Shown here one piece after another: positions 543 to 12,552 of a stretch of 64,000 bases of DNA (position 1 is the first letter of the stretch; every line of letters starts with the position of its first letter). The DNA is from Escherichia phage vb_EcoM_bov11CS3. The notes beneath the pieces were generated by a model. It worked only from the letters and a program-made list of their open reading frames with translations, was not told where the DNA came from and searched no databases. The stretch lies in the sequence record MT884009.2, one strand, 5' to 3'. Position numbers and translations under genes: made by a program.

Positions 543-821
543 GCCATGCCATTCGTTTGCATGATAACGATTAGCAAGTTAATAATCTTTCGCTGGCTAT
601 GCCAGGTGACTAGGTCACCCCTTCGGGTGTTTCTATGACATAATATAAAAGCAGGGCAACTATTAGAAGATCTATAGTTGCCTTGCTTGTTATGTCATGA
701 TTAACTAAATACAAGGCAACTATGATCTGATTAATAGTTTGCAGACAAACTATCACGGGGGTGATGGTTACTGCTTTTATATTATGTCGCGACTCCGTCG
801 CGCCATGCCATTCGTTTGCAT
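543..821. repeat. Composite palindromic element: 20-bp direct repeats (543-562, 802-821) flanking 18-bp inverted repeats (639-656, 771-788) and two 9-10-9 inverted-repeat sites (655-682, 715-742)
   Basis: Direct repeat gccatgccattcgtttgcat twice; inverted repeat gacataatataaaagcag/ctgcttttatattatgtc; half-site GGCAACTAT in inverted pairs with 10-bp spacers; extra palindrome ggtgactaggtcacc at 606-620. Confidence 0.7.
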
Positions 822-1437
822 AGTTGCCTTATTGTTACAGGTAAAATAATTACATTATTAATTATTTCTTATCTTTCTCTTAGTCATCTAATGATTCCAG
901 TCAGTATAGTAATGCACAGTAAACATTAGACGACTAAAGATTTCTCTGTTTATGATAACTCATCGTGATAATTTCGGACTGTTTACGAAAAATGTTGACA
1001 CCTGAGCTGATTTATGTTATGCAGTTTACACGAATAATTATTTTATGCAGGTATTGACTATTCCGTTATTCTGTGGTTGGAATAAATACTTTGCAGGCTA
1101 TAGAATGGCGTGCGTACGTGAATTCTGAGATCTGGCGGCTATAGTTATACTCGATTTTTCGCGTAGAACACGCTTTCGATGCTGTGTAAGTGTATGACTT
1201 ATAAAGATTTTTAGTTGTTGACAAGATATTGGAGATGTGCATCAGGTTAAAATTTGTGCAATAGCGGCATTACGTGCACTTTTGGGAGAGAAAACGGGTA
1301 AAAATGGACTTGCTACCACACAATGAAAAATTATGCAATAGTTATTTTCCATGTATATTTGTACAGTATGTGGGATTGATGGCTAGTCAATTATTCCACT
1401 TGCCAGGTAGGGCCGTTTATGGTAGGAGAAGAGCAGA

Positions 1438-1462
1438 CAAAAAGAAAGGGGCCTAAGCCCCT
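1438..1462 (-). terminator. Rho-independent terminator (minus-strand sense)
   Basis: Hairpin ggggc-ctaa-gcccc followed on the minus strand by a U-tract; immediately 3-prime of ORF 1482-1901. Confidence 0.6.
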
Positions 1463-1481
1463 TGATAATTCAGTTAAAAAA

Positions 1482-1901
1482 TTATAATGATTCGTATATT
1501 TCAAAAATCCGATTTGCCAGGTCGTTACGGTAGCGGAATTTTTCCTCACGTTTGATCATAAGATCTTTATAGCCGTACTCTTTAAGCACTTCATTAACTT
1601 TATGGCGGCATACTTTCATATTATCCTGCGCGTCACCAATAAATCTGTTGCTATGGTGCATGGCTTTAATTTCTTCTTCCAGGACCAGGGCAACTATGCG
1701 GACCGGATCAAGCTGATAGGCGGTAACATCCATGCGGCATTGTAAACGGCTTTTTACGTCTGCCACCGGATATACTGCAACCTCTTCCCCGTCAACATTG
1801 ACAATAATTAGTTTACCATCGATTTCGAATCCTTTCGCCGCCGGACCGTGACAAAAAGCGTTATCAAAGCTATATGCCGGATTATTAGATTTAATGTTCA
1901 T
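1482..1901 (-). CDS. hypothetical early protein (139 aa)
   Basis: ATG start, SD aagagg upstream, sigma70-like promoter at 1951-1978, terminator downstream. Confidence 0.6.
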   Translation of the reverse strand: MNIKSNNPAYSFDNAFCHGPAAKGFEIDGKLIIVNVDGEEVAVYPVADVKSRLQCRMDVTAYQLDPVRIVALVLEEEIKAMHHSNRFIGDAQDNMKVCRHKVNEVLKEYGYKDLMIKREEKFRYRNDLANRIFEIYESL

Positions 1902-1950
1902 GGTGTTTTTACCTCTTAGTTAATTTTCTTACAACTTCCCTTCAAAAAAG

Positions 1951-1978
1951 AATATAGCAAAACTGCCGATCCTTGTCA
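1951..1978 (-). promoter_or_regulatory. sigma70-like promoter (TTGACA-17-TATATT)
   Basis: Reverse complement of 1951-1978 reads attgacaaggatcggcagttttgctatatt. Confidence 0.6.
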
Positions 1979-2046
1979 ATAAGGATAGCATAATTTTTAT
2001 GTGATCAAGGGGCTTTATTGCCCCCCTGATCGTGCAACTTGTTGTA

Positions 2047-2310
2047 TTATTTGTTACTCATCCAGTTTTCCCAAGCTGCCTGATAATCTGCTTCACTGCG
2101 GCGGATCTCTTCTTGCTCTTCAAGTCGGATCTCTTCTTCCAGGTACCCCAGGATATCGGCTTTTTTGGTCTGGCGTAACATCCAATCATCTTTTTTACGG
2201 GTAAAGATCTTATATGCTTTCTCGCAAACCTCTTTTTTGCTACCTTTTTGGACTTCAAGAACTTTGTAGGCCATGTACTGAACTAGTTTGAGCTGATCAA
2301 GACGTTTCAT
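2047..2310 (-). CDS. hypothetical protein (87 aa)
   Basis: ATG start with SD; same strand as neighbours. Confidence 0.55.
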   Translation of the reverse strand: MKRLDQLKLVQYMAYKVLEVQKGSKKEVCEKAYKIFTRKKDDWMLRQTKKADILGYLEEEIRLEEQEEIRRSEADYQAAWENWMSNK

Positions 2311-2370
2311 GATGTTTACCTCTTTATGCGGTTCTGATTAGTGGGCCTTTTGGCCCGTGTCATTATCTTA

Positions 2371-2643
2371 TTACTTATGGCGGCAGAATTCAAGCGTTTT
2401 TAATTGATAATCTTCCTCAGCCTGGAGTACGACCGCCTCGATCATTTCGTTGGCATTGTTAAAGCCATAACCTTTAGCGAAATCATCCGCGCCACCTTCG
2501 TGATCATGTTCTGCGTTCATCGCTTCCACAAAATGGAATTCAAGATTATTGAGGTAAGGGCTTGATGTTCCGTCCTCTTTTTCGATGAGATCCCAAATAG
2601 CATTAAAACGTGATTCGACTTCTTGATTAATCCAGCTTGACAT
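2371..2643 (-). CDS. hypothetical acidic protein (90 aa)
   Basis: ATG start; GC hairpin in 5-prime leader. Confidence 0.55.
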   Translation of the reverse strand: MSSWINQEVESRFNAIWDLIEKEDGTSSPYLNNLEFHFVEAMNAEHDHEGGADDFAKGYGFNNANEMIEAVVLQAEEDYQLKTLEFCRHK

Positions 2644-2853
2644 GATGTTTTCCTCTCTTCTGGTTGTTGTGTGGGCACTTTTGCCCCTTCAAGATAATGT
2701 TACCCCACCCCATGGCAGATGTCAACGGTTTTTATAGTTCTTATATGACAGGCAGGCCCGGTGATTGTCTCCACCCGTCGCCAGGTGCCTGCCGTGTAAT
2801 AAGTATAACAAAAAACAGGACCATAGCAAGCCCTGTTTTGTAGTTTATAAATA

Positions 2854-3045
2854 TTATATTTTTTCGCCTATGTAGTCCGGTCGGTTTTTCTCTGTCATGC
2901 GCTTTAGCAATTCTTGCATGTTACTTATGGCTTGTAGCGTATCCTCTTCCAGACTTGAATCAACATAATCAGGATCGTCTATAACCTTTCTATGATTATG
3001 ATAACGCAGTACCGCCAATACCTTTCTAACTTGTTCGATATTCAT
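2854..3045 (-). CDS. hypothetical protein (63 aa)
   Basis: ATG start; track ORF. Confidence 0.5.
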   Translation of the reverse strand: MNIEQVRKVLAVLRYHNHRKVIDDPDYVDSSLEEDTLQAISNMQELLKRMTEKNRPDYIGEKI

Positions 3046-3057
3046 TTTTATCGCTCT

Positions 3058-3192
3058 TTAAAACAAGGTGCCAACCGTTTCCAATAGATCACTGACTACA
3101 AGGACAATACTGATCAGCACATATCTAACCATAAGGGGGAAGAGCGCCAGCGATCCCGCCACAATCCCCAAGGTGATAATTATCTTTCTCAT
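3058..3192 (-). CDS. small hydrophobic peptide (44 aa), not in ORF track
   Basis: ATG 2 nt after the stop of upstream gene; predicted transmembrane peptide MRKIIITLGIVAGSLALFPL... Confidence 0.3.
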   Translation of the reverse strand: MRKIIITLGIVAGSLALFPLMVRYVLISIVLVVSDLLETVGTLF

Positions 3193-3194
3193 GG

Positions 3195-3479
3195 TTAACG
3201 GTTCACGTAAGTTTTCCCGTTTACGGTGATGGGCAGATCCTCCAGGTCTGGATCTTCCTTAAGGTCGCGAGCAAGTTCACCGCACCGGACACCCTCGAAT
3301 CCGTAGTACTCTGTTGTACCGTCATTAAAAGTTTTAGCGGCAAGGCATAAGCGATAAGTAACCCCGATTTGATTGACGGCATGAATATCCGTTAGATTAA
3401 CCTCTTTTGCCAGCTCTTTAGCCATTACAGGCGCATTAAGTCCAACAACCAGGGCAACCACTGCGATCATCTTTTTCAT
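3195..3479 (-). CDS. small secreted protein with N-terminal signal peptide (94 aa)
   Basis: N-terminus MKKMIAVVALVVGLNAPVMA resembles a Sec signal peptide. Confidence 0.55.
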   Translation of the reverse strand: MKKMIAVVALVVGLNAPVMAKELAKEVNLTDIHAVNQIGVTYRLCLAAKTFNDGTTEYYGFEGVRCGELARDLKEDPDLEDLPITVNGKTYVNR

Positions 3480-3567
3480 TGTGTCTATCCTCTTTCTGCT
3501 ACGTTTAAGGCGGCAACCGCCTGTTTATGCTTTGTTGGTTAATTTTCGGGTATCGGTATAAATTAAA

Positions 3568-3783
3568 CTATGCTGTACGCTCAACTATAACAACGGCTTG
3601 AGGGATCTCACCTTCCACCACTATCAAGGCTTTTTTCTGCGTAATGGATATCTTTACCCGCTTCAGCGTGGCGGTAAAGTCTTTCATTTCGTCGCGTGGT
3701 GTTTTAGTGCAATGCCAGATCTCAGGCTTACCTATTTGCAAGCCGCGTAAAAATTCTGTTTTGCCTGTTTTGTTAGTGATCAT
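3568..3783 (-). CDS. hypothetical protein (71 aa)
   Basis: ATG start; track ORF. Confidence 0.5.
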   Translation of the reverse strand: MITNKTGKTEFLRGLQIGKPEIWHCTKTPRDEMKDFTATLKRVKISITQKKALIVVEGEIPQAVVIVERTA

Positions 3784-3792
3784 TTGCCAACC

Positions 3793-3897
3793 TCACCTGA
3801 TACCGTTGGAAGACAAGATCACATTAGCCATGGTTGCAATCAGGCCAATACCCAGGGCAATAACCAGGATCACCGCATCAATTAATTTCTGTTTCAT
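3793..3897 (-). CDS. small hydrophobic peptide (34 aa), not in ORF track
   Basis: ATG preceded by SD aagagg; sequence MKQKLIDAVILVIALGIGLIATMANVILSSNGIR. Confidence 0.3.
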   Translation of the reverse strand: MKQKLIDAVILVIALGIGLIATMANVILSSNGIR

Positions 3898-3987
3898 TTT
3901 GTTTTCCTCTTCTTGTTCCAGGTGGCGGACCATTCCACCGCCTTATGTATTATGCTTTGTAAGATGGTTGTTTGTTTTCAAACTATT

Positions 3988-4167
3988 TTAACGATAATCA
4001 TCGTACGCTTTATTAACCTGGCGAATATAACATTCAAAAGCCAGATCAATAGATTTATATTCACGGATATACTCACCATAGGAAACCGCATACATTTCTA
4101 TAGCTTCCTCATATGCGAGGAGAATAGAATCCAAGCCTACGATCTCAGTCTTTGCAATAATAGCCAT
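3988..4167 (-). CDS. small protein (59 aa), not in ORF track
   Basis: ATG with SD aagagg; promoter-like TTGACA-16-TAGTAT at 4215-4242. Confidence 0.35.
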   Translation of the reverse strand: MAIIAKTEIVGLDSILLAYEEAIEMYAVSYGEYIREYKSIDLAFECYIRQVNKAYDDYR

Positions 4168-4214
4168 GATTTTTATCCTCTTTGTGGTTGGTGGGGCTTG
4201 CCCCTTTGATTTAT

Positions 4215-4242
4215 ATACTACAGTCTTATATGGTCATGTCAA
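4215..4242 (-). promoter_or_regulatory. sigma70-like promoter (TTGACA-16-TAGTAT)
   Basis: Hexamers read from reverse complement. Confidence 0.45.
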
Positions 4243-4472
4243 CTATTTTCAAAAAATTTTTCTGCTGTAATATTTTTCCCGGTAGGGTTCGCTACTTTCA
4301 AAATTCTATCATGCACCGGACGCCCAAAAGAATAAGCGCCGTACACAGTAAACCAATAATCGCCGTCAGGCTGTACTATTACCGCCGCATATGGTACGCC
4401 TTTTTCGTTTTTGCTGACAAAATAGATCACATTGCCATTAATAGCCTCAGCGCGTTTAATTTGTTCCATCAT
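4239..4472 (-). CDS. hypothetical protein (77 aa)
   Basis: ATG start; track ORF. Confidence 0.5.
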   Translation of the reverse strand: MMEQIKRAEAINGNVIYFVSKNEKGVPYAAVIVQPDGDYWFTVYGAYSFGRPVHDRILKVANPTGKNITAEKFFENS

Positions 4473-4526
4473 GATGATTTACCTCTCTTTATTTTCATAA
4501 TTGGGGCCTTTTCGGCCCCGCCAGGT

Positions 4527-4811
4527 TTATTTATTGATAGCGTGCAGCGGGAAAGGTACGCCAGGTTGATAGATAACTTTTACAACCTCATCAGGGCAAA
4601 AGAAATTGCAGAATTCCCCCTGATAAGCCTCATCCTCTTTCAATTCTTCATCAACATACTCAAAAAAGTAGTCGATGCTTGGATAATCCTGGCCGGGATT
4701 ATAGTCTACCATCGTTAATAACAATTCTTGATCATTCCGTAGGATATGCATACCCGCTTTTAAGTATTTTGCTTCCATTTCCACTACATCGCCAACGGTG
4801 ACAATAGCCAT
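4527..4811 (-). CDS. hypothetical acidic protein (94 aa)
   Basis: ATG start; track ORF. Confidence 0.55.
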   Translation of the reverse strand: MAIVTVGDVVEMEAKYLKAGMHILRNDQELLLTMVDYNPGQDYPSIDYFFEYVDEELKEDEAYQGEFCNFFCPDEVVKVIYQPGVPFPLHAINK

Positions 4812-5037
4812 GATTTTAACTCCTATCTATCCGGTTAATGATTGGGGGGCCGCCCCCACTGACACGTCCTATTATCCATATTGTAGGACTTGATGCAAGT
4901 ACTTCTTTAAAAATTTTTTAAGCGCCTTGGGGCCGCTGTAACGCTAAAATAATAAAGGCCATGCAACCGCATAGCCTTTATGTGATTATATCGCTGCAGG
5001 CCCTGCTAGGGGCCTTATTTTGCATCATTTGCCGGAA

Positions 5038-5337
5038 TTATTCAGAGAAAACATCGTTCACAATGGCTATAACAATGCCGTTCACCTTGTCACGGTCAAC
5101 AATGCACAAATCACCATAGATCATGTGGTAGTCTGGATGATCTTTGACGGAATAGTCGATAAGTGTTTTCTTGTCATCCAGCTTACTAACTTCCATTCTC
5201 ATAACGATATGAGAATCATCAAAGGCATTATTCCGAAAAGTCATAACCTGACCACCAGGGCACCCGGTGATTTCCACCTCCACGCCGTCTACGATCTGAC
5301 CATCAAAGAAATAAAGATTATTAGCCTGGATAAACAT
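5038..5337 (-). CDS. hypothetical protein (about 99 aa; track start 5358 is GTG)
   Basis: Internal ATG with SD aaggag preferred over GTG. Confidence 0.45.
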   Translation of the reverse strand: MFIQANNLYFFDGQIVDGVEVEITGCPGGQVMTFRNNAFDDSHIVMRMEVSKLDDKKTLIDYSVKDHPDYHMIYGDLCIVDRDKVNGIVIAIVNDVFSE

Positions 5338-5381
5338 GATCATTACTCCTTTTTGCACTGATTATTTTAACAGGGTTTAAA

Positions 5382-5425
5382 TTTACTTTATTGATGGCCC
5401 TGGAGTCAAGGCCATCTAAAAATAA
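5382..5425 (-). repeat. 44-bp repeat copy A: promoter-like element with palindrome GATGGCC-N10-GGCCATC
   Basis: Near-identical to copies at 9127-9170 and 9748-9791; minus strand reads TTGACT-N18-TAAATT. Confidence 0.7.
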
Positions 5426-5428
5426 ATT

Positions 5429-5629
5429 TTACAGGCCTACAATCTCTTTAATTCGTTTTACTGCTGCCTCAGCGCCTTGAGGGTAAAAATTATGGTAACC
5501 AATCACGCGAGTGATACTAATCGCCGTTTGATGATCTTCATAATACCCCTTGAATATTTCTTGACCATCAACCAGCACAGCAATTTTTTCTTCTTTTTTG
5601 AAGTTAATAACGCGGATATTGTTGCTCAT
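5429..5629 (-). CDS. hypothetical protein (66 aa)
   Basis: ATG start with SD; hairpin ggggag-tgt-ctcccc in leader. Confidence 0.5.
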   Translation of the reverse strand: MSNNIRVINFKKEEKIAVLVDGQEIFKGYYEDHQTAISITRVIGYHNFYPQGAEAAVKRIKEIVGL

Positions 5630-5730
5630 TTTGTTTCCCCTTCTGGAACTTTGTCTGTGTGGTGGGGAGTGTCTCCCCGTTGATTGTTATTATCCATATT
5701 CAGGACCGGATTGCAACACCCCGGAAGAAA

Positions 5731-5770
5731 AATTTTTTGAAAAAAGTTAGGCCCCCAGGGATCGGGGGCC
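5731..5770 (-). terminator. Rho-independent terminator (minus-strand sense)
   Basis: Hairpin ggcccccagggatcgggggcc followed on the minus strand by a U-rich tract. Confidence 0.55.
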
Positions 5771-5914
5771 GTTATCAGTTACTTACAGAGATAAAATACA
5801 TCCCTACGCCTAACAATATTTCAAGGGCGATGATCTCAAGCCATACCATAACACGGCGCACCTTATCAGCGCATGGCTTATCCTTGGTTGTCATCGTCTC
5901 CCCCTTCCCTCCTG

Positions 5915-6136
5915 TTAGTAGTGACGTGGTTTACAATGGCCCCCAGGAGTCCTATCACCACGCACACCACAAGAAAAATTATCTCCGCTGTTGTTCGATC
6001 CATTGTTATAAAATTCCTCAAGATCAGGCCTGAAAATAAAGCGTTCGTTATTGAATCCGTCACGCCAGGCGGCTGGCTTCAAATCTTCACTAAAGGGATT
6101 AATTAACGTGGCGTTATTTAAACGGCTGGTCCACAT
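5915..6136 (-). CDS. hypothetical protein (about 73 aa; alternative overlapping frame 5878-6063 exists)
   Basis: ATG with SD gagagga; the track start is TTG. Confidence 0.3.
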   Translation of the reverse strand: MWTSRLNNATLINPFSEDLKPAAWRDGFNNERFIFRPDLEEFYNNGSNNSGDNFSCGVRGDRTPGGHCKPRHY

Positions 6137-6486
6137 ATTTTCTATTCCTCTCAAATAGGCGATCCGCCTCAGTTAAACATATCTCATGGGCTTGGTCTCT
6201 GGTTTTAGCCTCATCAAAAACCTGTTGTGCCAGGCTGCAGCGTAGGGAGACTGGAAGATCACTATAATAGGCGTTGACAAACGTTTGTGCGTCATACAGG
6301 TCGGAAAACACTTTACCCTTTCTATTATCGCCCTTGTCAACAATTGCAAGGATAACCAATACAATAGTTGCAACCACTCCCAGGAAAATAGATATAACAA
6401 ACCATAGAAAAGCGGATCTACCTATCTTGCCAGCGATCCAGGCGTTGAACAAGGCAACTACTACAGCCAAAATAATAAATTCCATT
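6114..6486 (-). CDS. small membrane protein (about 123 aa, two predicted TM segments)
   Basis: Internal ATG with SD agagg chosen; the track start 6620 overlaps the upstream gene by 70 nt. Confidence 0.5.
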
Positions 6487-6549
6487 CTATGTACCTCTTT
6501 TGCAGTTCTGTTTAACAATAAGGCGGCAAATATGCCGCCTGTTACCTGA

Positions 6550-6930
6550 TTAAAAATTATCGCCGTAAATCTTTCCGCTTTCTGCCCACACCACCACGCG
6601 GGGCATGTTATCCCATACATCTTGTTTCAGATTTAACGCGTGCAATTCTTCGGTGGTGCTCATACCAGGCACGGGCTGATTGTATACTGCAAAACGACCA
6701 CCTGCATAATCATAGGCCAGAGTTAAATCACACTGAATCATCTTTTTGATCATGGCGTTAAGCATAGCGTTAGCCGCATACTGGTCACGTTTTAAAGGCA
6801 ACTCTTTGATTAGTTTGCGATAGTTTTCGATATGGTCGCACACTGTTTCACGTGGAAGATCTTTCATATCTTCACGGAATGTAACCAGGTTAAACATAAC
6901 GGTGTCAATAGCTTTAGTAGTGTTTTTCAT
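6550..6930 (-). CDS. hypothetical protein (126 aa)
   Basis: ATG start; promoter 6985-7012 and 8-bp hairpin in leader. Confidence 0.55.
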   Translation of the reverse strand: MKNTTKAIDTVMFNLVTFREDMKDLPRETVCDHIENYRKLIKELPLKRDQYAANAMLNAMIKKMIQCDLTLAYDYAGGRFAVYNQPVPGMSTTEELHALNLKQDVWDNMPRVVVWAESGKIYGDNF

Positions 6931-6984
6931 GATGTTTTCCTCTTTGTTTTGTGTGGGGGCAAACGTCTTGCCCCCTTGAGTTTT

Positions 6985-7012
6985 AATATAGCAGGTTTTT
7001 AGGTTATTGCAA
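6985..7012 (-). promoter_or_regulatory. sigma70-like promoter (TTGCAA-16-TATATT)
   Basis: Hexamers read from reverse complement; followed by hairpin gggggcaa-acgtc-ttgccccc. Confidence 0.5.
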
Positions 7013-7020
7013 CACTTTAT

Positions 7021-7644
7021 TTATGAAAAAGTCATCTCACCATATTCATCGACATCAAACCGCCAATCATTGGCCTCGATAAGGCCGATCAGGTTTTCTG
7101 CGGTGAACTGTTCTAGATAGGCCTCCTCCAGGTCTACGTAAACCTTGCGGGATAGCTCCCGTACCGTCTCGGTGATCAGTTCTTCCAGGTCTTCCACTTT
7201 GTTTTCTTGTTTGGCGGTCAGATCTAGCCAAGTGGTATCAATGTACCCGCTTACAGTGTTTTCATGGCTGTAATGGCTGTACTTGTCGCGTTCAACACTG
7301 GCTGATAACTCGCCATCGTGCATTGTGCCGAACAAGTGACGAATTGATCGGAACTTGGTCAGGGCCTTTACTTTACGCAAAAATTTTTCTAAATCCACGT
7401 TTTCAGCACTGATTGACGCGCCGTCACCCTGGCACCAAAAGCCGGACCAATGTACTTCGGTATCTTCAAGGCCGTACTCTGGAAAGATATATTCTTTGTA
7501 GTGTTCAATTACACTTTCTGCAAAAAAGTCATCCCCGCTGTGTTCTTCTCTTTCGCGTACCATTTCAATGGCTTTTTCTTTTTGTTCGTCGGTCAGCACG
7601 TCGAAAGATAAATTGTAACCTGTGGTAATGTTAACGGTGGTCAT
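7021..7644 (-). CDS. acidic protein of unknown function (207 aa)
   Basis: Strongly acidic composition; ATG start; promoter 7702-7729. Confidence 0.6.
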   Translation of the reverse strand: MTTVNITTGYNLSFDVLTDEQKEKAIEMVREREEHSGDDFFAESVIEHYKEYIFPEYGLEDTEVHWSGFWCQGDGASISAENVDLEKFLRKVKALTKFRSIRHLFGTMHDGELSASVERDKYSHYSHENTVSGYIDTTWLDLTAKQENKVEDLEELITETVRELSRKVYVDLEEAYLEQFTAENLIGLIEANDWRFDVDEYGEMTFS

Positions 7645-7701
7645 GATATTTTCTCCTGTTTTCTTTGTTAGTGGCGGTAAGTTTTCCCGCCTGTGTGTTT
7701 A

Positions 7702-7729
7702 ATTATACTTATTGAGATTTACTTGTCAA
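7702..7729 (-). promoter_or_regulatory. sigma70-like promoter (TTGACA-16-TATAAT)
   Basis: Consensus hexamers read from reverse complement. Confidence 0.6.
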
Positions 7730-7979
7730 CACTATTTTTTAAATTATTGTGGCGCAAAATGTTTAAAATCTCCTCAACGTCATCAACACGGCGGCAATTT
7801 TTAAACGCTACCAATTGCCCCATGATTTTAATCACTGGGCGGCCTTGCCAGTGCCCCTGGAGAAAGCGCGCCTTGACTTTATCGGTGGAACTATCACGCC
7901 ACCAAATGGCCTTGTTGTTGCAGTAGTAAAAATTATTCAGGACAACATCAACTTTATCAAAATTTTTTAATTTACGCAT
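7719..7979 (-). CDS. hypothetical protein (86 aa)
   Basis: ATG start; promoter 8011-8038. Confidence 0.5.
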   Translation of the reverse strand: MRKLKNFDKVDVVLNNFYYCNNKAIWWRDSSTDKVKARFLQGHWQGRPVIKIMGQLVAFKNCRRVDDVEEILNILRHNNLKNSVDK

Positions 7980-8010
7980 GGCGTTTACTCCTTTCTCTCT
8001 TTGATGTGGT

Positions 8011-8038
8011 TAGTATAGCTAACCTGTTTAAGATGTCA
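8011..8038 (-). promoter_or_regulatory. sigma70-like promoter (TTGACA-16-TATACT)
   Basis: Hexamers read from reverse complement. Confidence 0.55.
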
Positions 8039-8183
8039 AGCTTTAAATAAAATCACTGTCAATGATATTTTTAACGCCATAAAACGGCCCTAAGCGATGT
8101 TTTCAGGTTAAAGGGGGGCGATTGCATAGGTGGGGCCTTTTTGGCGCTTACAGGGCCAACCAGGGGCGCTATTCGTAGGATAG

Positions 8184-8212
8184 AAATAAAAAGCCCCGCA
8201 CAATGGCGGGGC
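8184..8212 (-). terminator. Rho-independent terminator (minus-strand sense)
   Basis: Hairpin gccccgc-acaatg-gcggggc followed on the minus strand by a U-tract; 3-prime of gene 8221-8418. Confidence 0.65.
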
Positions 8213-8220
8213 GTTGGTTG

Positions 8221-8418
8221 TTATTTGTCTTTATGGCGGTATCGTTCTGCCTGTCGTTCACGTTCCAAAAGTAGGCCAGGCAATTTACGATCATAATGAT
8301 TTCGCCAGATCTTTCCAAATCTTTTTGGCTTATTCAGTTTATTGTTACGCTGGCGTCGTTCCGGCAGCTCTTCGGAATCATGAGATCGCTTTACAATCTT
8401 CTCAAAATTAATCTTCAT
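8221..8418 (-). CDS. small highly basic protein (about 65 aa; track start 8442 is TTG)
   Basis: ATG with SD aagggggg; Arg/Lys-rich. Confidence 0.45.
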   Translation of the reverse strand: MKINFEKIVKRSHDSEELPERRQRNNKLNKPKRFGKIWRNHYDRKLPGLLLERERQAERYRHKDK

Positions 8419-8779
8419 ATATTCCCCCCTTGCTAACTTCAATATTGGCCTGAATAGCCCGGATACGCCGTTTTATAACCTCCTGATCCTTGCAATCATA
8501 TCCCCAAAAGTCTACGATTTTTGCGCCTCCAGCCTTTAGGCGGTATAGTGTTTCTTGCATCTTGTAGGCCGGGATCGGTCGCGGTGTTACCTGGTCGCCC
8601 TTCTCATTCTTGTACTTAATAATGTAGTCTTCATTGTCGTTGAATATCCAAAATGGGTATTCTGTGAGCGCGTTGCTCTCTTTTTCGTTTTTAGATTGGA
8701 TCTTGTTTACAATTAAAGCCGTAGCAATAGCGCCAATAATAAAACTTGCCCCACTGATCATGTTACTTTCTCCTTTCAT
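8408..8779 (-). CDS. membrane-anchored protein (123 aa)
   Basis: N-terminal hydrophobic segment; ATG start. Confidence 0.55.
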   Translation of the reverse strand: MKGESNMISGASFIIGAIATALIVNKIQSKNEKESNALTEYPFWIFNDNEDYIIKYKNEKGDQVTPRPIPAYKMQETLYRLKAGGAKIVDFWGYDCKDQEVIKRRIRAIQANIEVSKGGIYED

Positions 8780-8837
8780 TGTATTGATAAACTATCTTTA
8801 TAGATGGCCCTGCTACCAGGACCACCGAAAAAACAGT

Positions 8838-9083
8838 TTATTTGACGATACCGACAAAACAGATCCCGCCTTCCCCTATATAGGCAATATCGGTAATTTT
8901 ATAATTTGTCAAGATCCGCGTGTTCAGCTCATTAATAAAATCTGTCATCGCGTTGGTGTAGTTGTCTTCCGTGTCTAAGGCATAATCCCAGGTGTAAACC
9001 TTTTTACGTCCGAAGCCTTTTACCATGATACGGGCGCTTTTGGTGTTGGTAGGGGCATAATATTTGGTGATTAGTGCTGCCAT
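8838..9083 (-). CDS. hypothetical protein (81 aa)
   Basis: ATG start; preceded by 44-bp promoter repeat copy B. Confidence 0.5.
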   Translation of the reverse strand: MAALITKYYAPTNTKSARIMVKGFGRKKVYTWDYALDTEDNYTNAMTDFINELNTRILTNYKITDIAYIGEGGICFVGIVK

Positions 9084-9126
9084 GGTTTTAACTCCTATGC
9101 ATTAGTTCAGTGTTAACAGTATAAAG

Positions 9127-9170
9127 TTTACTTTATTGATGGCCCTGGAGTCAAGGCCATCTAAAAATAA
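9127..9170 (-). repeat. 44-bp repeat copy B: promoter-like element with palindrome
   Basis: Minus strand reads TTGACT-N17-TAAACT; palindrome GATGGCC/GGCCATC flanks the -35 hexamer. Confidence 0.7.
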
Positions 9171-9172
9171 TC

Positions 9173-9514
9173 TTACTCGTTTTCTTCCAGCTCCGCAAGC
9201 TCTTCTTTTGCTTCTTCTAGCTCTGTCTGTAATTCCTGGTATTCTTCATCGTCCTCAATATCCAGGCTGTCGATGTAGTCGCTAAATCCGCAGCGGTAAG
9301 CGATAGGATCTAGCTCCTTGAGGATACGCGACGGAAGAAAAGAAATGTTTCCGATCATGATTTCGCCGTAGATCTCGTCTAACCATTCATCATAGTTTTC
9401 GTCGTACTTGTCCTCGTCGATTTCAAAGGTATCGATCTTGTTCTCAAGGTCTGCGATCTGTTTTTTCAGTGCGGCAACCTGAATAGCTTTTTCTGCGGCG
9501 GTCATAGTAGTCAT
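9173..9514 (-). CDS. acidic coiled-coil protein (113 aa)
   Basis: ATG start; promoter 9566-9593. Confidence 0.55.
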   Translation of the reverse strand: MTTMTAAEKAIQVAALKKQIADLENKIDTFEIDEDKYDENYDEWLDEIYGEIMIGNISFLPSRILKELDPIAYRCGFSDYIDSLDIEDDEEYQELQTELEEAKEELAELEENE

Positions 9515-9565
9515 GGTGTTTTCTCCTTTTGTGTGTTCTGGGAAGTTTTCCCGTTTACGGGTTTA

Positions 9566-9593
9566 AGTATACCGATCTAAGTTAGCTTGTCAA
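9566..9593 (-). promoter_or_regulatory. sigma70-like promoter (TTGACA-16-TATACT)
   Basis: Hexamers read from reverse complement. Confidence 0.55.
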
Positions 9594-9713
9594 TTAAAAA
9601 TTTAAGAAAAATTTTGCAAAACTGTTAGCGCTACTCATTAACATTTGCGCCAGGATGTAACCGACAACGCAGACGATAATAGTTACCTTTGTGTATTGGC
9701 GTGTAGTGCCCAT
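9594..9713 (-). CDS. small hydrophobic peptide (39 aa), not in ORF track
   Basis: ATG with SD aggggg; predicted TM segment. Confidence 0.3.
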   Translation of the reverse strand: MGTTRQYTKVTIIVCVVGYILAQMLMSSANSFAKFFLNF

Positions 9714-9747
9714 CTTAAAGCCCCCTTTTTCGCTTAACTGAGATTAG

Positions 9748-9791
9748 TTTACTTTATTGATGGCCCTGGAGTCAAGGCCATCTAAAAATAA
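9748..9791 (-). repeat. 44-bp repeat copy C: promoter-like element with palindrome
   Basis: Identical to copy B. Confidence 0.7.
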
Positions 9792-9793
9792 AC

Positions 9794-10198
9794 TCAATAA
9801 GTTTTTAGTACTTTCCCGTCCAACCTGTCTAGCTGGATCTCAATGGCTGCAGAAAACCTATTATAAACCACGTCGCCCATGGAATCCAACCAGTCTATGA
9901 CGTTATACACTTGCTCTTTGTTCTTGCAGGTCCGGATCCGTTTCATGATGTAAGCCGGATCAATATTGGTACTCTCGTTGGTGTTCCCCTGTACCTGGTT
10001 TGCCGTATTAGCTACATCTTTAATGGCCTTTACCACCACCTGGAAGGGCTTTAAGGTGCCTTTTGCGTTCATCTCACGCGCTTTTGCGGCGCGGTTGTTA
10101 TAGGTTACACAACGGCGGCAAATGTTCACTAAGTGCATGTCAATAATTTTTTCATCGTTTGCCAGTTCGTTCATGATGCGGCGTACGTTCTTATTCAT
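9794..10198 (-). CDS. hypothetical protein (134 aa)
   Basis: ATG start; promoter 10247-10274. Confidence 0.55.
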   Translation of the reverse strand: MNKNVRRIMNELANDEKIIDMHLVNICRRCVTYNNRAAKAREMNAKGTLKPFQVVVKAIKDVANTANQVQGNTNESTNIDPAYIMKRIRTCKNKEQVYNVIDWLDSMGDVVYNRFSAAIEIQLDRLDGKVLKTY

Positions 10199-10246
10199 GA
10201 TCTTTTTCCTTTGTGCTGGCGGGAAACATTCCCGCCTTTTGTGTCT

Positions 10247-10274
10247 AGTTTACTTAAATTTTGCAGCGTGTCAA
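10247..10274 (-). promoter_or_regulatory. sigma70-like promoter (TTGACA-16-TAAACT)
   Basis: Hexamers read from reverse complement. Confidence 0.5.
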
Positions 10275-10280
10275 TGATTT

Positions 10281-10679
10281 TTATTCGTGGGCGCATGTCA
10301 CAATGTGCTTTTTATAGCCCAGGTGGTCAGCAAGTGCCGACAAAAACTCTTCTTCGTAGATCCAGCCGTCGGCAGTGATCCCCATAGCATTTAATGCACT
10401 CTCAAGTGCTGCGTTAGCTTTATCGTAACCGTGACCGCTCGCCTTGCCGCCAGTATAACCGTACTTATTGTTCTTGTTGTCGTGAATCCAAAACACGCAG
10501 TAGTGAGTGTTACCACTGGCGGCGGCATAATACCGGATCTCAGCTACTTCGTGCAAATTATTGTCATCGTCCAGGCCCACCAGATTATAAGCCTTGTAAA
10601 ATCCACGATCACGGCGGCAGTTCTTGACATCAGAAAAAGAAAAGTCCGCATTATCAAAATTAAAGGTAGTGGTTTTCAT
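10281..10679 (-). CDS. hypothetical protein (132 aa)
   Basis: ATG start; track ORF. Confidence 0.55.
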   Translation of the reverse strand: MKTTTFNFDNADFSFSDVKNCRRDRGFYKAYNLVGLDDDNNLHEVAEIRYYAAASGNTHYCVFWIHDNKNNKYGYTGGKASGHGYDKANAALESALNAMGITADGWIYEEEFLSALADHLGYKKHIVTCAHE

Positions 10680-10742
10680 GATTTTATCCTCTTAGTGTCT
10701 TTTGCGATTTCAGTGTATTTTGTGTCAGACCATATGTCAACA

Positions 10743-10939
10743 TTATTTTTTATTAAACCAGTGGTTGATCTGACCTTTTGTCAGGGCGCAACGGTTAAGC
10801 TGTTGCAGGGTATAGCTATGACCGCGACGAAATTTATAAAGGCCTTGCCCGTTGTTGATGGTTACATCCACCCGGCAAATCACTTGATTGGTGACCACCT
10901 GGCGAGTGTTGCGACGTACTTTAATTCCGTAGGCGTTCA
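10743..10939 (-). CDS. hypothetical small protein (about 65 aa; track extends to 11027)
   Basis: Internal ATG with SD agagg preferred. Confidence 0.4.
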
Positions 10940-11026
10940 TGATTTTTTTATCCTCTCTGTTAATTGGTGTGGTGTTGTTCACCTTGCGAGGATAAGAATA
11001 ACAAGAACTGTCCGAGCTGTCAACCA

Positions 11027-11202
11027 TTAGTTAAAATTATTTTTTGGGTAGAATTCTCCAGCCGCCGCCCCTGCCAGGTTAACCATCATTTTTTCGTACT
11101 CTTCTTTATGTTCCAACGCTCCCGCCATAGCCTTTTCAACCAGGGCGATAGCCTCAGCGTCATTAATAGCTACATTTTCCAGGGGGATCATATTACCTTC
11201 CA
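11027..11202 (-). CDS. small protein (58 aa), not in ORF track
   Basis: ATG with strong SD gaggagg. Confidence 0.35.
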
Positions 11203-11467
11203 TTTTTGTACCTCCTCTTCAATTGTTACCTATCCTATAGCATAGGCCCACCAGGTTTGCAAGCCTTCATTCTCTCCTACCTGGTCAGTTAGGCCCTGCC
11301 AGGCTGGCCCCGCCAGGTTGCAGCGGTCAGCGCATCAGGTTAGAAATTTTTTTTTGAAAAGTGTTGACAGCGGCCCCGCCAGGTGGCAAAATATACCTAT
11401 CGAAAGGACGGCAGGCACCGGTGACGGGGGAGACAACCACCGGGGATGGGCGCTGCATGAAATGAGA

Positions 11468-11484
11468 ACGATTATCATTATCGT
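11468..11484. promoter_or_regulatory. Fur-box-like palindromic operator (imperfect)
   Basis: acgattatcattatcgt resembles the GATAATGATAATCATTATC consensus. Confidence 0.35.
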
Positions 11485-11601
11485 CTAAAAATTTATGCAA
11501 AAACTTCTTGCTTTCTTTGTCCTGTGTGTTACTATAATAACAAGCCGGGGCAGTAGGGGCCGGGAGACAATCACCGGGCCTGCCCGTTATTCTGCAAACG
11601 A

Positions 11602-11616
11602 GAATGATTATCATTC
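11602..11616. promoter_or_regulatory. Fur-box-like perfect palindrome GAATGAT-T-ATCATTC
   Basis: Perfect 7-1-7 inverted repeat; 12 of 13 match to the Fur-box core AATGATAATCATT. Confidence 0.4.
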
Positions 11617-11732
11617 AAAATTCTAAATGAGAACTCCTCGCATTTAATAAATTTAATTAGCACGCTAATTACCCTCCGTAACAATTTCCTATAAAATAGT
11701 ATCCACTAAAATATTCCCATATAGAAATTTTA

Positions 11733-11910
11733 AAAATCCATTTCTGAAAACGAAAAATCGATTTCGTCCCCAAAAATTTCAGGTCGAGAGCCGGAACGAT
11801 TTCCAGAAAATCCGATTCAGAAAACGAAAAACAGATCGAGTACTGAGAAATTTATCGAGAAAAATTTTCAGAAAATTCAATCTTTGAAACGAAAAACAGA
11901 TCGAGTACTT
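11733..11910. repeat. Three degenerate 38-bp direct repeats (iteron-like)
   Basis: Copies at about 11733, 11808 and 11873 share gaaaacgaaaaacagatcgagtact. Confidence 0.6.
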
Positions 11911-12219
11911 GGAAAGCTGCGCCACAACTTCAAGGTAGTGGTCGGATTATTACTATAAAAGGTCAAGGGTAAGTGGGGGAAGTTCTAGTAGAAGGGTGTG
12001 AGCATGTGCGGGAAATCTGTAATGGTGGTCTGGAATATGGTGCAGACGATAGGATGAGTGGTTCATCTCGTCGTGCCTGCTCTGAAAAATCCATTTTAGT
12101 TTTCGATCCATTTTCTGATTTTCTAAGGATTTTAAAATATCCTGGTAGGTAAAATATCAAAAGGAGGAAATCCATTTTAGAAATCCTCCTGATCTCTGGC
12201 AACCTGATAACTTAAAATA

Positions 12220-12552
12220 TCAGGCTCCCAGTGTGTTCTTTCCTTTATACAACCGTAAGGGTATAGTTTTTGTAACAGTCCATCTCCCCAGCCCTTCCCA
12301 GTTCCAGTTGTAGGCATGGTACCCGGTTACGCATGCACTGCTGGAGTGATCATAGGCATAAGAGAACGCTATACGCACCAAATGAAACCAGTCTTTCCAC
12401 GGTTGTGGTCCGTAAGCTTTTCTCCAACACCGACACAAGCTAAATGTCTCAAGAATAGGCAGGATAACAAATCCATACACCGCCACCAGAATAGCCAACG
12501 CAATGATTGTCAGGAATACATACCCTGCAGTTGAAACGATGATCTCTGTCAT
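12220..12552 (-). CDS. membrane protein (110 aa)
   Basis: Hydrophobic N-terminal segment; ATG start. Confidence 0.5.
   Translation of the reverse strand: MTEIIVSTAGYVFLTIIALAILVAVYGFVILPILETFSLCRCWRKAYGPQPWKDWFHLVRIAFSYAYDHSSSACVTGYHAYNWNWEGLGRWTVTKTIPLRLYKGKNTLGA

Follow-up and report, generated by a model that had tools for sequence, protein, structure and literature searches.

A conserved non-coding region at the inner edge of the left-terminal early genes of an rV5-like coliphage, with features resembling the phage T5 injection stop signal

A gene-free kilobase in an rV5-like genome

The genome of Escherichia phage vb_EcoM_bov11CS3 (MT884009.2), an rV5-like coliphage of the genus Vequintavirus, contains a gene-free gap of 1016 bp (11204-12219) between two minus-strand coding sequences (11027-11203 and 12220-12552), and the question raised by this locus, referred to here as the hub, is what it does if it does not encode protein. 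Positions refer to the window, the whole 64,000-nucleotide stretch of this genome that was analysed. An earlier note on the window had described the gap as lacking a convincing ORF between minus-strand genes and had discounted two ORFs within it. Both judgements held, as no ORF in the gap is conserved among relatives, and the two ORFs exist but are interrupted in related phages, as is a third that is annotated in GenBank:

11327-11614, minus strand: 95-aa ORF, within the gap; broken in relatives
11963-12202, minus strand: 79-aa ORF, within the gap; broken in relatives
12006-12152, plus strand: 48-aa CDS annotated in GenBank; broken in relatives

The breaks in the three ORFs consist of changes in poly-T length, 1- and 2-nt indels, and a 134-nt deletion (phage AlexBoehm). 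It is hardly credible that any of the three is a conventional protein-coding gene: the ORFs are present and several GenBank records carry hypothetical proteins here, but these annotations differ from record to record, the frameshifting indels and the deletion disrupt the frames in relatives, and the ORFs overrun promoters, palindromes and repeats (see below). Several such spurious gene calls are flagged in more than 100 GenBank records. Both genes flanking the gap match PHROG families, and PHROG annotation assigned a function to none of the ten genes flanking the hub.

Core segments of the hub are ~95% identical within the genus, compared to 62-84% for the flanking coding sequences, and the same architecture is present in Seunavirus, Mydovirus, Certrevirus, Phapecoctavirus, and Vequintavirus. 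The earlier reading of the gap as a non-coding, presumably cis-acting region was supported. Compositionally, both GC and AT skew turn positive locally within the hub, and the GC content falls to 33% over 11600-11930 and 31% over 12080-12219. If it is the region depicted as a ‘non-coding’ box in the rV5 genome paper, the hub would also account for that box.

Position relative to the genome end and the early genes

[quoted passage not shown] Because position 1 of the window corresponds to the physical left end of EdH4, the hub is placed 8.2-9.0% from the left end (11.2-12.2 kb of 135,884 bp). Terminal redundancies of 458 bp have been reported (Korf et al. 2019; PMC6563267). According to PhageTerm, the DNA of this phage is circularly permuted (PMC8407724), the literature on rV5 and PVP-SE1 concurs for those phages, and these calls conflict with the terminal repeats obtained with PacBio. 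Two features were assigned to the end itself:

1-459, no strand: putative direct terminal repeat and physical left end, based on EdH4 homology
10-28, 30-44, 126-144 and 144-162, no strand: second palindrome cluster, within the terminal repeat, based on position weight matrix (PWM) matches

Between this end and the hub are ~40 tiny leftward genes, each with strong sigma-70 promoters upstream, and of the 13 best promoter-like sites in positions 1-12400, all but one are on the minus strand. Terminators are enriched in this early block (27 found, 11.7 expected). The hub is predicted to hold both the first leftward promoter of the early block and a terminator for the leftward operon of replication genes that runs into it.

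Predicted promoters and a predicted terminator within the hub

The transcription signals and the GC-rich motifs associated with them are as follows:

11245-11383, plus strand: four GGCCC(N1-2)CCAGG motifs, at 11245, 11292, 11306 and 11372
11234-11262, minus strand: predicted leftward sigma-70-type early promoter, from a reading of the sequence
11364-11392, plus strand: predicted rightward promoter P1 (TTGACA, 17-nt spacer, CAAAAT, upstream TG; 10 of 12 matches)
11508-11538, plus strand: predicted rightward promoter P2 (perfect -10 TATAAT at 11533-11538, with TTGCTT 19 nt upstream)
12151-12189, minus strand: predicted intrinsic terminator of the incoming leftward operon, from a reading of the sequence; stem conserved

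Four GGCCC-N-CCAGG motifs had been noted previously, of which three are exact copies of GGCCCNNCCAGG (11292, 11306, and 11372) and the fourth (11245) has a shorter spacer. Allowing one mismatch, the motif has nine matches in the window compared to 2.0 expected, a number reached by none of 100 shuffles. Read on the minus strand, the motifs become (T/C)TGC(A/C)A-CCTGGnGGGCC, a -35 hexamer followed by a GC-rich spacer, and they are likely to be the GC-rich spacers of sigma-70 promoter modules, one of which would drive the leftward early genes. In that module, a -35 TTGCAA (11257-11262) is followed by a 17-nt GC-rich spacer with CCTGGTGGGCC and a -10 TATAGG (11234-11239), upstream of a ribosome-binding site (GGAGG) and the ATG at 11203; we only infer this promoter, because its -10 hexamer fails the promoter-scan rule. 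A single TTGCAA-N16-TATAGG unit is retained in ECP26 and slur16, which have deletions between the GGCCC..CCAGG copies, and the TTGCAA-CCTGGGGCC layout recurs in plus-strand promoters of the Mydovirus and Certrevirus hubs.

P1 and P2 are tandem rightward promoters without an ORF. P1 is unchanged in seven relatives, and no other strong sigma-70 site is on the plus strand within the first 12.4 kb. P2 aligns with TTGCAA-17-TATATT promoters in other genera, and its strength is uncertain because the promoter scan makes no call there. Rightward transcripts are plausible; a promoter-hairpin module is kept in five genera, and the skews reverse locally. For this phage, transcription is predicted to start near 11399 and 11545 on the plus strand and near 11227 and 2795 on the minus strand. 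At the opposite edge of the hub, the terminator consists of a GGAGGA/TCCTCC stem followed by TTTTGATATTTT on the minus strand. No intrinsic terminator was found on the plus strand.

Leader hairpins and the case for regulatory RNAs

Downstream of each rightward promoter is a GC-rich hairpin, and a third copy is found elsewhere in the early block:

11411-11456, plus strand: leader hairpin copy 1, an outer stem around a hairpin presenting GAGACAACCACCGG (minimum free energy, -20.1 kcal/mol; z = -1.8)
11548-11585, plus strand: leader hairpin copy 2, conserved across genera
2742-2830, minus strand: third promoter-plus-leader-hairpin module, outside the hub (TTGCTA-16-TATACT, then GGCAGGC...GCCTGCC; z = -2.5), with the GC-rich copy itself at 2745-2800

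The two hub copies had been described as structured elements of about 110 bp; the copies are real and 134-136 nt apart, but the shared length is only ~55-85 nt. They are likely to be rightward promoter-plus-leader-hairpin modules. Pairing of the outer helix holds in 80% of cells, compared to 32-49% in slid controls, and three of its pairs show compensatory changes. Among 17 hairpin elements, RNAalifold found no consensus structure, and the structure proposed by hand was only moderately supported. Folding z-scores range between -0.1 and -2.5. A search of the window and four related loci against Rfam 15 (gathering and E-value thresholds) returned no credible match, and ARAGORN did not match the hub element to a tRNA or tmRNA. 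The small-RNA locus that had been proposed is thus weakly supported: the conserved module favours it, and the lack of an Rfam match, an RNAalifold consensus, and a plus-strand terminator does not.

Two existing or candidate assignments of this element were rejected. The homologous spot in Klebsiella phage OY978796 is annotated as a tRNA-Met, but ARAGORN finds no tRNA at that locus or at three others, and promoters, a small ORF and the hub element occupy the annotated coordinates instead. The pseudo-ToxI of PhiTE, a mimic of a type III antitoxin, was considered as well; the hub fragment of PhiTE has no ToxI-like 36-nt repeats, and in the Certrevirus DU_PP_I such repeats are ~70 kb away from the hub.

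Promoter-proximal RNA elements are known from phages HK022 (put) and lambda (nut). Similar to these, the hairpins described here begin within ~10-15 nt of the transcription start of early promoters, recur several times in a genome, and keep one orientation relative to the promoter. They resemble put and nut neither in sequence nor by Rfam, and two of the three copies point away from all genes.

It is possible to read the hub as purely transcriptional, a promoter/terminator junction with small regulatory RNAs, in which P1, P2, and the promoter at 2830 would yield short structured leaders that serve in cis for antitermination or stabilisation, or in trans as sRNAs. The singular strength of P1 in the left 12.4 kb, the positive skews, the partly compensated outer helix, and a module present three times in the genome and conserved across genera in a constant orientation to its promoter all point this way. 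Plus-strand small ORFs in the hubs of other genera also point this way, and rightward transcription units are therefore real in those genera; the encoded small proteins have no homologue in this phage and belong to DUF7170 or no credible family. Nevertheless, this reading is unlikely. Rfam, RNAalifold, and the search for a plus-strand terminator gave nothing in its favour, the folding z-scores are weak, and the invariant loop sequence suggests sequence-specific recognition rather than structure alone. AlexBoehm has a single hybrid hairpin copy in place of the two, and a phage with the copies collapsed in this way is evidently viable. Further, the transcriptional reading offers no explanation for the iterons, the palindromes clustered at the terminus, or the parallel with T5 (see below).

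Palindromes resembling Fur operators

Each promoter-hairpin module in the hub is followed by 19-bp palindromes:

11461-11485, no strand: predicted Fur-box palindrome A, AATGAGAACGATTATCATT with an overlapping site offset by 6 bp
11597-11615, no strand: predicted Fur-box palindrome B, with an overlapping site at +6
11626-11644, no strand: predicted Fur-box palindrome C, 29 bp from B

Box A matches GATAATGATAATCATTATC at 17 of 19 positions (11464-11482), where 0.03 such matches are expected in the window, and scores 27.9 bits with the phage PWM. In the Fur-operator test, TGAGAATnATTATCA matched at 13 of 14 positions. Box B has 16 consecutive bases (AAACGAGAATGATTAT) in common with the Fur operator of E. 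coli fhuA, an operator shifted by Fur in gel assays (PMC2189734). Natural Fur operators form clusters of overlapping sites 3 or 6 bp apart (PMC2189734), and the hub palindromes overlap in pairs at a 6-bp offset (11461/11467 and 11597/11603).

The PWM was built from phage palindromes alone and applied to E. coli, T5, and this phage, with the fhuA and ent-fep regions of E. coli taken directly for the host comparison. Across 49 kb of E. coli sequence, its top six matches are in the fepB-entC, fepD-entS, and fepA-fes intergenic regions, and the fhuA box scores 17.8 bits. Based on these comparisons, the hub palindromes behave in silico as Fur boxes and appear indistinguishable from E. coli Fur operators. 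The likeness to operators such as fhuA, fepA-fes, fepB-entC, and iucA extends to the 19-bp 9-1-9 / 7-1-7 geometry. In contrast to those operators, the hub sites overlap no clear -35/-10 of a regulated gene, form arrays with 29-bp spacing, and favour symmetric G/C where Fur sites usually have T/A. The binder may be another protein, since position 6 of the phage palindromes is preferentially G (TGAGAAT), whereas T predominates there in Fur sites. For a purely transcriptional hub, Fur would be expected to repress or tune P1, P2, and the promoter at 2830 according to iron supply; however, the boxes are at +50 to +100 and not over the promoters.

Seven Fur-like sites in this phage reach a score of at least ~9 bits, and all of them are within two non-coding clusters. 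Many unrelated viral contigs have tandem arrays of identical 20-mers, in a mixed gene context (one near a primase-helicase, one near a terminase). In one of these contigs (L038), the same palindromes are found among DnaA boxes, 2 kb from the primase-helicase gene. These distributions, together with the class Ia and class III ribonucleotide reductases encoded by the phage, would suit a decoy, in which replicated palindrome arrays titrate Fur, derepress host iron uptake, and feed the iron-dependent reductases. Such a role is very unlikely, as it leaves unexplained why the arrays keep a set position and order beside promoters and iterons, why one cluster is 10 bp from the end of the DNA, and why palindromes are present in the T5 injection-stop region. 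It also found no support in the literature library searched, which gave nothing relevant on Fur boxes in virulent phages or on Vequintavirinae transcriptomes. The earlier reader had missed the Fur-box palindromes, where the hub stands with respect to the physical genome end, and its similarity to the T5 injection stop.

Iterons and the possibility of a replication origin

The right half of the hub is made up of the following segments:

11645-11719, no strand: AT-rich linker, from composition, skew and conservation
11720-11923, plus strand: three iteron units of ~65-74 bp, each composed of an A/T tract followed by GAAAACGAAAAA and (G)ATCGAG(T/A)AC
11916-12080, no strand: hypervariable G-rich spacer, including the start of the unconserved CDS at 12006-12152
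12081-12140, plus strand: AAATCCATTTT / GATCCATTTTC motif zone, 96% identical within the genus

The repeats had been reported as three direct copies of 38 bp; there are indeed three units (11720, 11794, and 11859), with a length of 57 nt rather than 38. They are 63-79% identical to one another with spacings of 74 and 65, are not called as tandem by TRF, and are 94.5% identical within the genus. Threefold units with a GATCGAG(A/T)ACC core are also present in PVP-SE1, GAP31, and Mydovirus, with a variant in PhiTE. The spacer to their right has 72% identity with 1- and 2-nt indels, is part of a 189-nt block of equal length in all seven phages, and folds weakly (-16 kcal/mol for 190 nt; G-U pairs are numerous). 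Motifs related to those of the motif zone, AAAATGGATTT and AAACCATTTC, occur in other genera. Repeats of the aaatccatttt type, which had also been noted, can be written as AAATCCATTT(T/C) and were recovered at 11734, 12087, and 12168, with a modest excess window-wide (seven matches compared to 3.05 expected; 3 of 100 shuffles reached seven).

With three iterons beside an AT-rich region, the hub has the arrangement by which iteron-type origins are recognized. Transcription activates or primes initiation at the T7 primary origin, T4 oriF/oriG, and ori-lambda, which with P1 oriR represent iteron-type or transcription-activated origins. The hub is similar to these in its repeats of one orientation, AT-rich neighbour, and promoters firing inward. 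By analogy, a phage initiator would bind the three GATCGAG iterons and the adjacent AT-rich DNA would melt, with transcription from P1 and P2 activating or priming initiation and the Fur-type palindromes serving as host-factor sites. Several observations are in keeping with this: the iterons share one orientation and have a core that co-varies with the genus (GATCGAGTACT, GATCGAGAACC, GATCGAGACCC); the tract of 33% GC adjoins them; the two tandem ORF-less promoters are aimed into them; genes for DNA polymerase and a primase-helicase are 9-13 kb off in the same transcription unit; and the contig L038 has its palindromes near replication signals.

The hub is unlike the named origins, however, in that it has no embedded or adjacent initiator gene, no skew signal, and no DnaA box (TTWTNCACA), which is absent from the terminal repeat as well. 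Cumulative GC skew has no inflection at 11-12 kb and merely follows the direction of transcription, a conclusion also reached in the rV5 paper (PMC3606486); this test is weak because the skew tracks transcription only. GATC sites are few (four in 1016 bp), and the matching region in T5 is known as an injection stop and not as the T5 origin. The replication origin proposed in the earlier note was not shown by skew, DnaA boxes or an adjacent initiator gene, and an origin here is improbable, kept in consideration by the iterons, the AT-rich tract, and the promoters.

Resemblance to the T5 injection stop signal

In T5, the iss (Repeat Region 3) is annotated at 9140-10149, at 7.9% of the genome, with the shear point of first-step transfer at ~9618. 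Applied to T5, the phage PWM yields 26-31.6 bits at three positions (9552, 9656, and 9691) and 16.8 bits at a fourth (9587); the four sites are inside the iss and around the shear point. A BLAST search with T5 9530-9730 returned matches in Phapecoctavirus and Justusliebigvirus records; the match adjoins the hub match in ESCO5 and is inside the hub in tuntematon. T5, GAP31, Mydovirus, and tuntematon share an order of palindromes, A/T tracts with iterons, and a paired TTGAGATAA motif, the last of which is absent from this Vequintavirus genome.

The hub and the iss are alike in several respects. Both are untranslated regions of ~1 kb, ~8% from the left physical end and at the inner edge of the early block, with leftward early or pre-early genes in the left block and leftward genes on the right. 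Both have AAATGAGAAT...ATCATT palindromes and an array of AAATGAGAATCATT-type palindromes (T5 9552-9709, beside the shear point and scoring 17-32 bits; hub 11461-11644). There are also clear differences. The T5 region is inside a ~10-kb terminal repeat, whereas the repeat here is 459 bp and the hub is therefore outside it, in unique sequence. T5 has paired DnaA boxes (eight per first-step-transfer region), of which the hub has none, and carries GTGCAAATCCGACA iterons and a nick site, where the hub carries GATCGAG iterons and rightward promoter-hairpin modules. Second-step transfer in T5 needs A1 and A2, and a tblastn search of this genome with all T5 pre-early proteins found no homologues of A1, A2, or dmp (nothing below E = 0.08). 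Unlike in T5, two-step transfer is without report for rV5-like phages.

Based on position, conservation, and motif content, our tentative reading, put forward as somewhat less than an even prospect, is that the hub is a conserved, non-coding, cis-acting boundary region similar to the T5 iss, delimiting the left-terminal early genes of rV5-like phages on their inner side. Under such a scheme, once the left ~12 kb of DNA is inside the cell, a host dimeric protein (Fur being the best candidate) would load on the palindrome arrays and an iteron binder on the repeats. The two complexes could hold or pause the DNA and insulate the hub, during which time host RNA polymerase would fire leftward into the host-takeover genes, and the rightward promoters would transcribe into the hub and possibly past it. 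It is a good deal more doubtful that two-step or paused delivery is common to T5-like siphoviruses and rV5-like and phAPEC8-like myoviruses, with a Fur-box array as the core of the stop signal. If paused delivery were true, Fur, or a protein of the same specificity, would be the host factor that has long been missing from the account of the T5 injection stop signal, and the ORF-less rightward promoters at the boundary could help to bring in or activate the remaining genome.

The T5 injection stop signal is a cis-acting element that has been unsolved for ~50 years and hitherto discussed only within T5-like phages, as DnaA boxes and repeats. With the hub, a second group of large coliphages, unrelated to the first, would have a counterpart at an equivalent relative position on the map, the core palindrome of which resembles a Fur operator. 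Demerecviridae and Vequintavirinae are both sensitive to daunorubicin, which blocks a T5-like phage after first-step transfer (PMC13250531), a link to T5-like transfer that is circumstantial. Beyond cultivated phages, the motif ATGAGAATGATTNTCATTCA marks similar non-coding regions in many uncultivated phages.

Gene-free gap and genome layout

As judged from sequence comparison, the hub probably corresponds, in the rV5 group, to the injection stop signal (iss) region of phage T5. It is a gap of 1016 bp (11204-12219) between minus-strand genes 11027-11203 and 12220-12552, both with matches to PHROG families of unknown function. In the genome as a whole, genes lie on the minus strand from 97.7 kb down past position 1 to 135.5 kb, except for a plus-strand cluster at 38.7-45.7 kb, and plus-strand genes fill 97.8-134.9 kb. 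The DNA polymerase gene lies ~9 kb upstream of the gap in the same leftward transcription unit, and ~40 tiny genes lie to its left in a block where minus-strand sigma-70 promoters close to consensus are numerous and terminators are in excess, an arrangement typical of genes read at once by unmodified host polymerase. Three reading frames fall in the gap:

In the gap, minus strand: ORF of 95 aa
In the gap, minus strand: ORF of 79 aa
12006-12152, plus strand: annotated CDS of 48 aa

In an alignment of seven phages, all three are crossed by frameshifting indels, changes in poly-T length and a 134-nt deletion, and none is a conserved gene, in agreement with the earlier note, which had described a gene-free kilobase and found its ORFs unconvincing. 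Coding genes are an extremely improbable explanation of the region. Hypothetical-protein calls within the hub vary between records (e.g., EdH4 11328-11492, Gotham 11031-11318), are broken by indels in relatives and are probably spurious. A comparison with related phages, which the note had proposed, found the promoter-hairpin-Fur segments and the iterons to be ~95% identical within the genus, versus 62-84% in sampled flanking coding sequence. In the hub region, at least 16 'Campylobacter phage' records (MG0656xx) share 93-99% identity with E. coli rV5-like phages, and their host labels are doubtful.

Predicted promoters and hairpin modules

The repeat families that had been described in the hub are all real, with lengths that required correction. 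The GGCCC-N-CCAGG motif is indeed enriched (9 matches at ≤1 mismatch vs 2.0 expected; 0 of 100 shuffles reached 9). On the minus strand, three of the four consist of TTGCAA, CTGCAA or TTGCCA followed by CCTGGnGGGCC, and they are predicted to be promoter parts, a -35 hexamer with a GC-rich spacer. At 11245 the motif is part of a complete predicted promoter (TTGCAA, 17 nt, TATAGG), which lies immediately upstream of the ATG at 11203 and its ribosome-binding site. One TTGCAA-N16-TATAGG unit survives deletions between motif copies in ECP26 and slur16, and Mydovirus and Certrevirus also have promoters of TTGCAA-CCTGGGGCC layout in their corresponding regions. Of the copies elsewhere in the window, those examined, at 4514 and 4999, are located in terminator stems.

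The two structured GC-rich copies, 134-136 nt apart, have ~55-85 nt in common rather than the ~110 bp first estimated, and are predicted to be rightward promoter-hairpin modules:

Copy 1, plus strand: promoter P1, TTGACA, 17 nt, CAAAAT with upstream TG
Copy 2, plus strand: promoter P2, perfect TATAAT, aligning with clear promoters of other genera
2742-2830, minus strand: third module copy, TTGCTA-16-TATACT, then GGCAGGC...GAGACAATCACCGG...GCCTGCC

Among the 13 best sigma-70 sites of the first 12.4 kb, P1 is the only strong one on the plus strand. A ~45-nt element begins ~10-15 nt after P1 and P2, with an outer stem around a hairpin displaying the nearly invariant GAGACAAnCACCGG. The third copy has the same layout and is co-oriented with local genes; it lies after a terminator and before a second promoter (TTGACA-17-TAACAT) and gene 2371-2643, and is similar in sequence to the single hybrid module of AlexBoehm, the recombination product of copies 1 and 2. 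Pairing in the outer helix holds in 80% of cells, compared to 32-49% in slid controls, and three of the pairs show compensatory changes. RNAalifold predicted no structure from the mixed hairpin-element alignment and folding z-scores ranged from -0.1 to -2.5; structural support for the leader hairpin is only moderate. GC and AT skew are positive inside the hub, opposite to the flanks, which fits rightward transcription, and a search for a plus-strand terminator found none.

No Rfam family was matched. A purely transcriptional or small-RNA hub is unlikely; it would fit these modules but gives no account of the iterons, the terminal palindromes or the T5 match.

The hubs of other genera have a small plus-strand gene directly upstream of the promoter-hairpin element:

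Comparison locus L002, 1083-1265: small hub gene
Comparison locus L004, 1069-1260: small hub gene
Comparison locus L059, 1920-2186: small hub gene
PhiTE locus L020 (reverse), 1166-1450: small hub gene

In Seunavirus this gene is DUF7170, and PhiTE and tuntematon have in common a second family with a LGWQGGTVHQVA motif; this Vequintavirus has no homologue of either. ToxI-like 36-nt antitoxin repeats match ~200 records of Klebsiella, Salmonella, Escherichia and Pectobacterium phages, many more than the PhiTE case in the literature. Record OY978796.1 has three annotated tRNAs (Lys, Ile, Met) at 878-1573, where ARAGORN finds none; what the sequence does hold there is promoters, a small ORF and the hub element, which makes the tRNA coordinates look misplaced.

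Fur-box-like palindromes

At the DNA level, only ~11507-11660 of the window is still conserved in PVP-SE1, GAP31, Mydovirus, Certrevirus (PhiTE among them) and phAPEC8-like phages, all distant relatives. Its invariant core reads AAATGAGAATGATT(A/C)TCATTCAA, and this most conserved piece of the hub is a Fur-box-like palindrome. Box A (11461-11479) matches 17 of 19 positions of the classical Fur box, where chance would give 0.03 matches of this quality in the window, and Box B has 16 consecutive bases in common with the E. coli fhuA operator, a site shifted by Fur in gel assays (PMC2189734). Secondary sites overlap Boxes A and B at a 6 bp offset, as occurs at natural Fur operators (PMC2189734), and the usual box spacing in multi-box hubs is 29 bp. 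A matrix built from 26 distinct phage palindromes only scored the fhuA box at 17.8 bits and, on the 49 kb E. coli ent-fep region, placed its six best matches in three Fur-controlled divergent promoter regions. Phage sites favour G where Fur sites usually carry T (TGAGAAT), and Fur is therefore the best candidate for the binder rather than a proven one. A Fur decoy is very unlikely and, like coding genes, ranks below an origin and a transcriptional or small-RNA hub. Strong sites genome-wide are confined to two clusters, one in the hub (11461, 11597, 11626) and one at the left end (10, 126, 144), where the palindromes are:

10-28: Fur-box-like palindrome
30-44: Fur-box-like palindrome, 7-1-7 site
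126-144: Fur-box-like palindrome
144-162: Fur-box-like palindrome

Many viral contigs lacking the hub hairpin element (IMG/VR loci L016, L017, L022, L035-L039 and L043) also carry the exact 20-mer ATGAGAATGATTNTCATTCA in non-coding DNA, often in tandem arrays ~30 bp apart beside other iterons; the L038 copy has DnaA boxes around it and a primase-helicase gene 2 kb away.

Iterons and variable island

The three direct repeats, previously put at 38 bp, are 57-nt units (A/T tract, GAAAACGAAAAA, GATCGAGTACT) spaced 74 and 65 nt apart. PVP-SE1, GAP31 and Mydovirus likewise have three units of ~67-75 bp ending in GATCGAG(A/T)ACC, and PhiTE has at least five copies of GATCGAGACCC. A genus-dependent core would be expected if the units are the target of a phage-encoded protein. 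Beyond the iterons lies a hypervariable G-rich island (11916-12080; 72% identity, 1- and 2-nt indels) with a weak consensus RNA fold. The 189-nt block spanning it has equal length in 7 of 7 vequintaviruses compared, which suggests a spacing constraint. A 96% identical AAATCCATTTT zone and then the terminator of the incoming leftward operon follow. The aaatccatttt repeats are real, with AAATCCATTT(T/C) occurring three times in the hub. A replication origin would fit the iterons, AT-rich tract and promoters but is improbable; a 'non-coding' box was drawn in the rV5 paper, which could not locate an origin (PMC3606486).

Probable physical left end

The PacBio-sequenced vequintaviruses EdH4 and HdK5 are reported to have 458-bp terminal redundancies (Korf et al., PMC6563267). 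The first 459 bp of EdH4 have an exact second copy at its right end, and EdH4 and the window share their starting nucleotide; by homology, window 1-459 would be a direct terminal repeat and position 1 the physical left end. This conflicts with the published PhageTerm result for this phage, circularly permuted (PMC8407724), a call also made in the rV5 paper (PMC3606486). The hub lies at 11.2-12.2 kb in this phage, EdH4 and HdK5 (8.2-9.0% of the genome), and only 10 bp lie between the DNA end and the second palindrome cluster. Another large non-coding region (genome 134.9-135.9 kb, which is 24874-25884 of locus L007, plus window 1-230) sits where plus and minus gene blocks converge, beside the right end, and contains CCTGAAGAG four times, CTGCCCCGCCGG(G)AG twice and a purine-rich tract with GGGGGGAGGGGGG at its end.

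Comparison with the T5 injection stop signal

In T5, the left ~8% of the DNA enters first and transfer halts at the iss, inside a 1.0-1.7-kb untranslated region rich in repeats and palindromes and better conserved than neighbouring ORFs (Davison, bioRxiv 10.1101/866236). T5 (AY543070) carries four to six strong Fur-box-like palindromes at 9540-9730, around the first-step-transfer shear point, and a weaker site at 6098 in Repeat Region 2. The phage-palindrome matrix scored 31.6 bits at 9656, 28.2 at 9691, 26.0 at 9552 and 16.8 at 9587 (AAATACGAATCATTATCATTCG, AAATGAGAATCATTCCGC, AAATGAGAATCATTATCATTTGC and AAATGAGATTGATTCTCATTATCATTCGC in T5), all within the annotated iss and on either side of the calculated shear point (~9618). 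BLAST with T5 9530-9730 matched 635 records, mostly T5-like in genome size and name, with Phapecoctavirus and Justusliebigvirus records also among them; the match adjoins the hub match in ESCO5 and lies within the hub in tuntematon. In T5 the palindromes are followed by A/T-tract-flanked iterons and then by two TTGAGATA(A/G) motifs spaced 20 nt; this order and orientation recur in GAP31, Mydovirus and tuntematon, where A/T-tract iterons precede the two motifs at a spacing of 22-23 nt. The TTGAGATAA pair is absent from this Vequintavirus, which, unlike T5, has no DnaA boxes in the hub or the terminal repeat and does not share the long terminal repeat; a search for homologues of the T5 pre-early proteins A1, A2 and dmp found none.

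The hub would act in cis as a boundary on the inner side of the left-terminal early block and bring together early promoters, host-factor (Fur-type) arrays and iterons particular to the phage. This model as a whole is tentative, and an actual pause of DNA entry at the hub is possible but doubtful. Davison's analysis mentions DnaA boxes and not Fur (bioRxiv 10.1101/866236), and the literature searched contained no link of Vequintavirinae to the T5 iss, nor of Fur boxes to either. Demerecviridae and Vequintavirinae are both sensitive to daunorubicin, which in a T5-like phage blocks infection after first-step transfer (PMC13250531), a circumstantial link.
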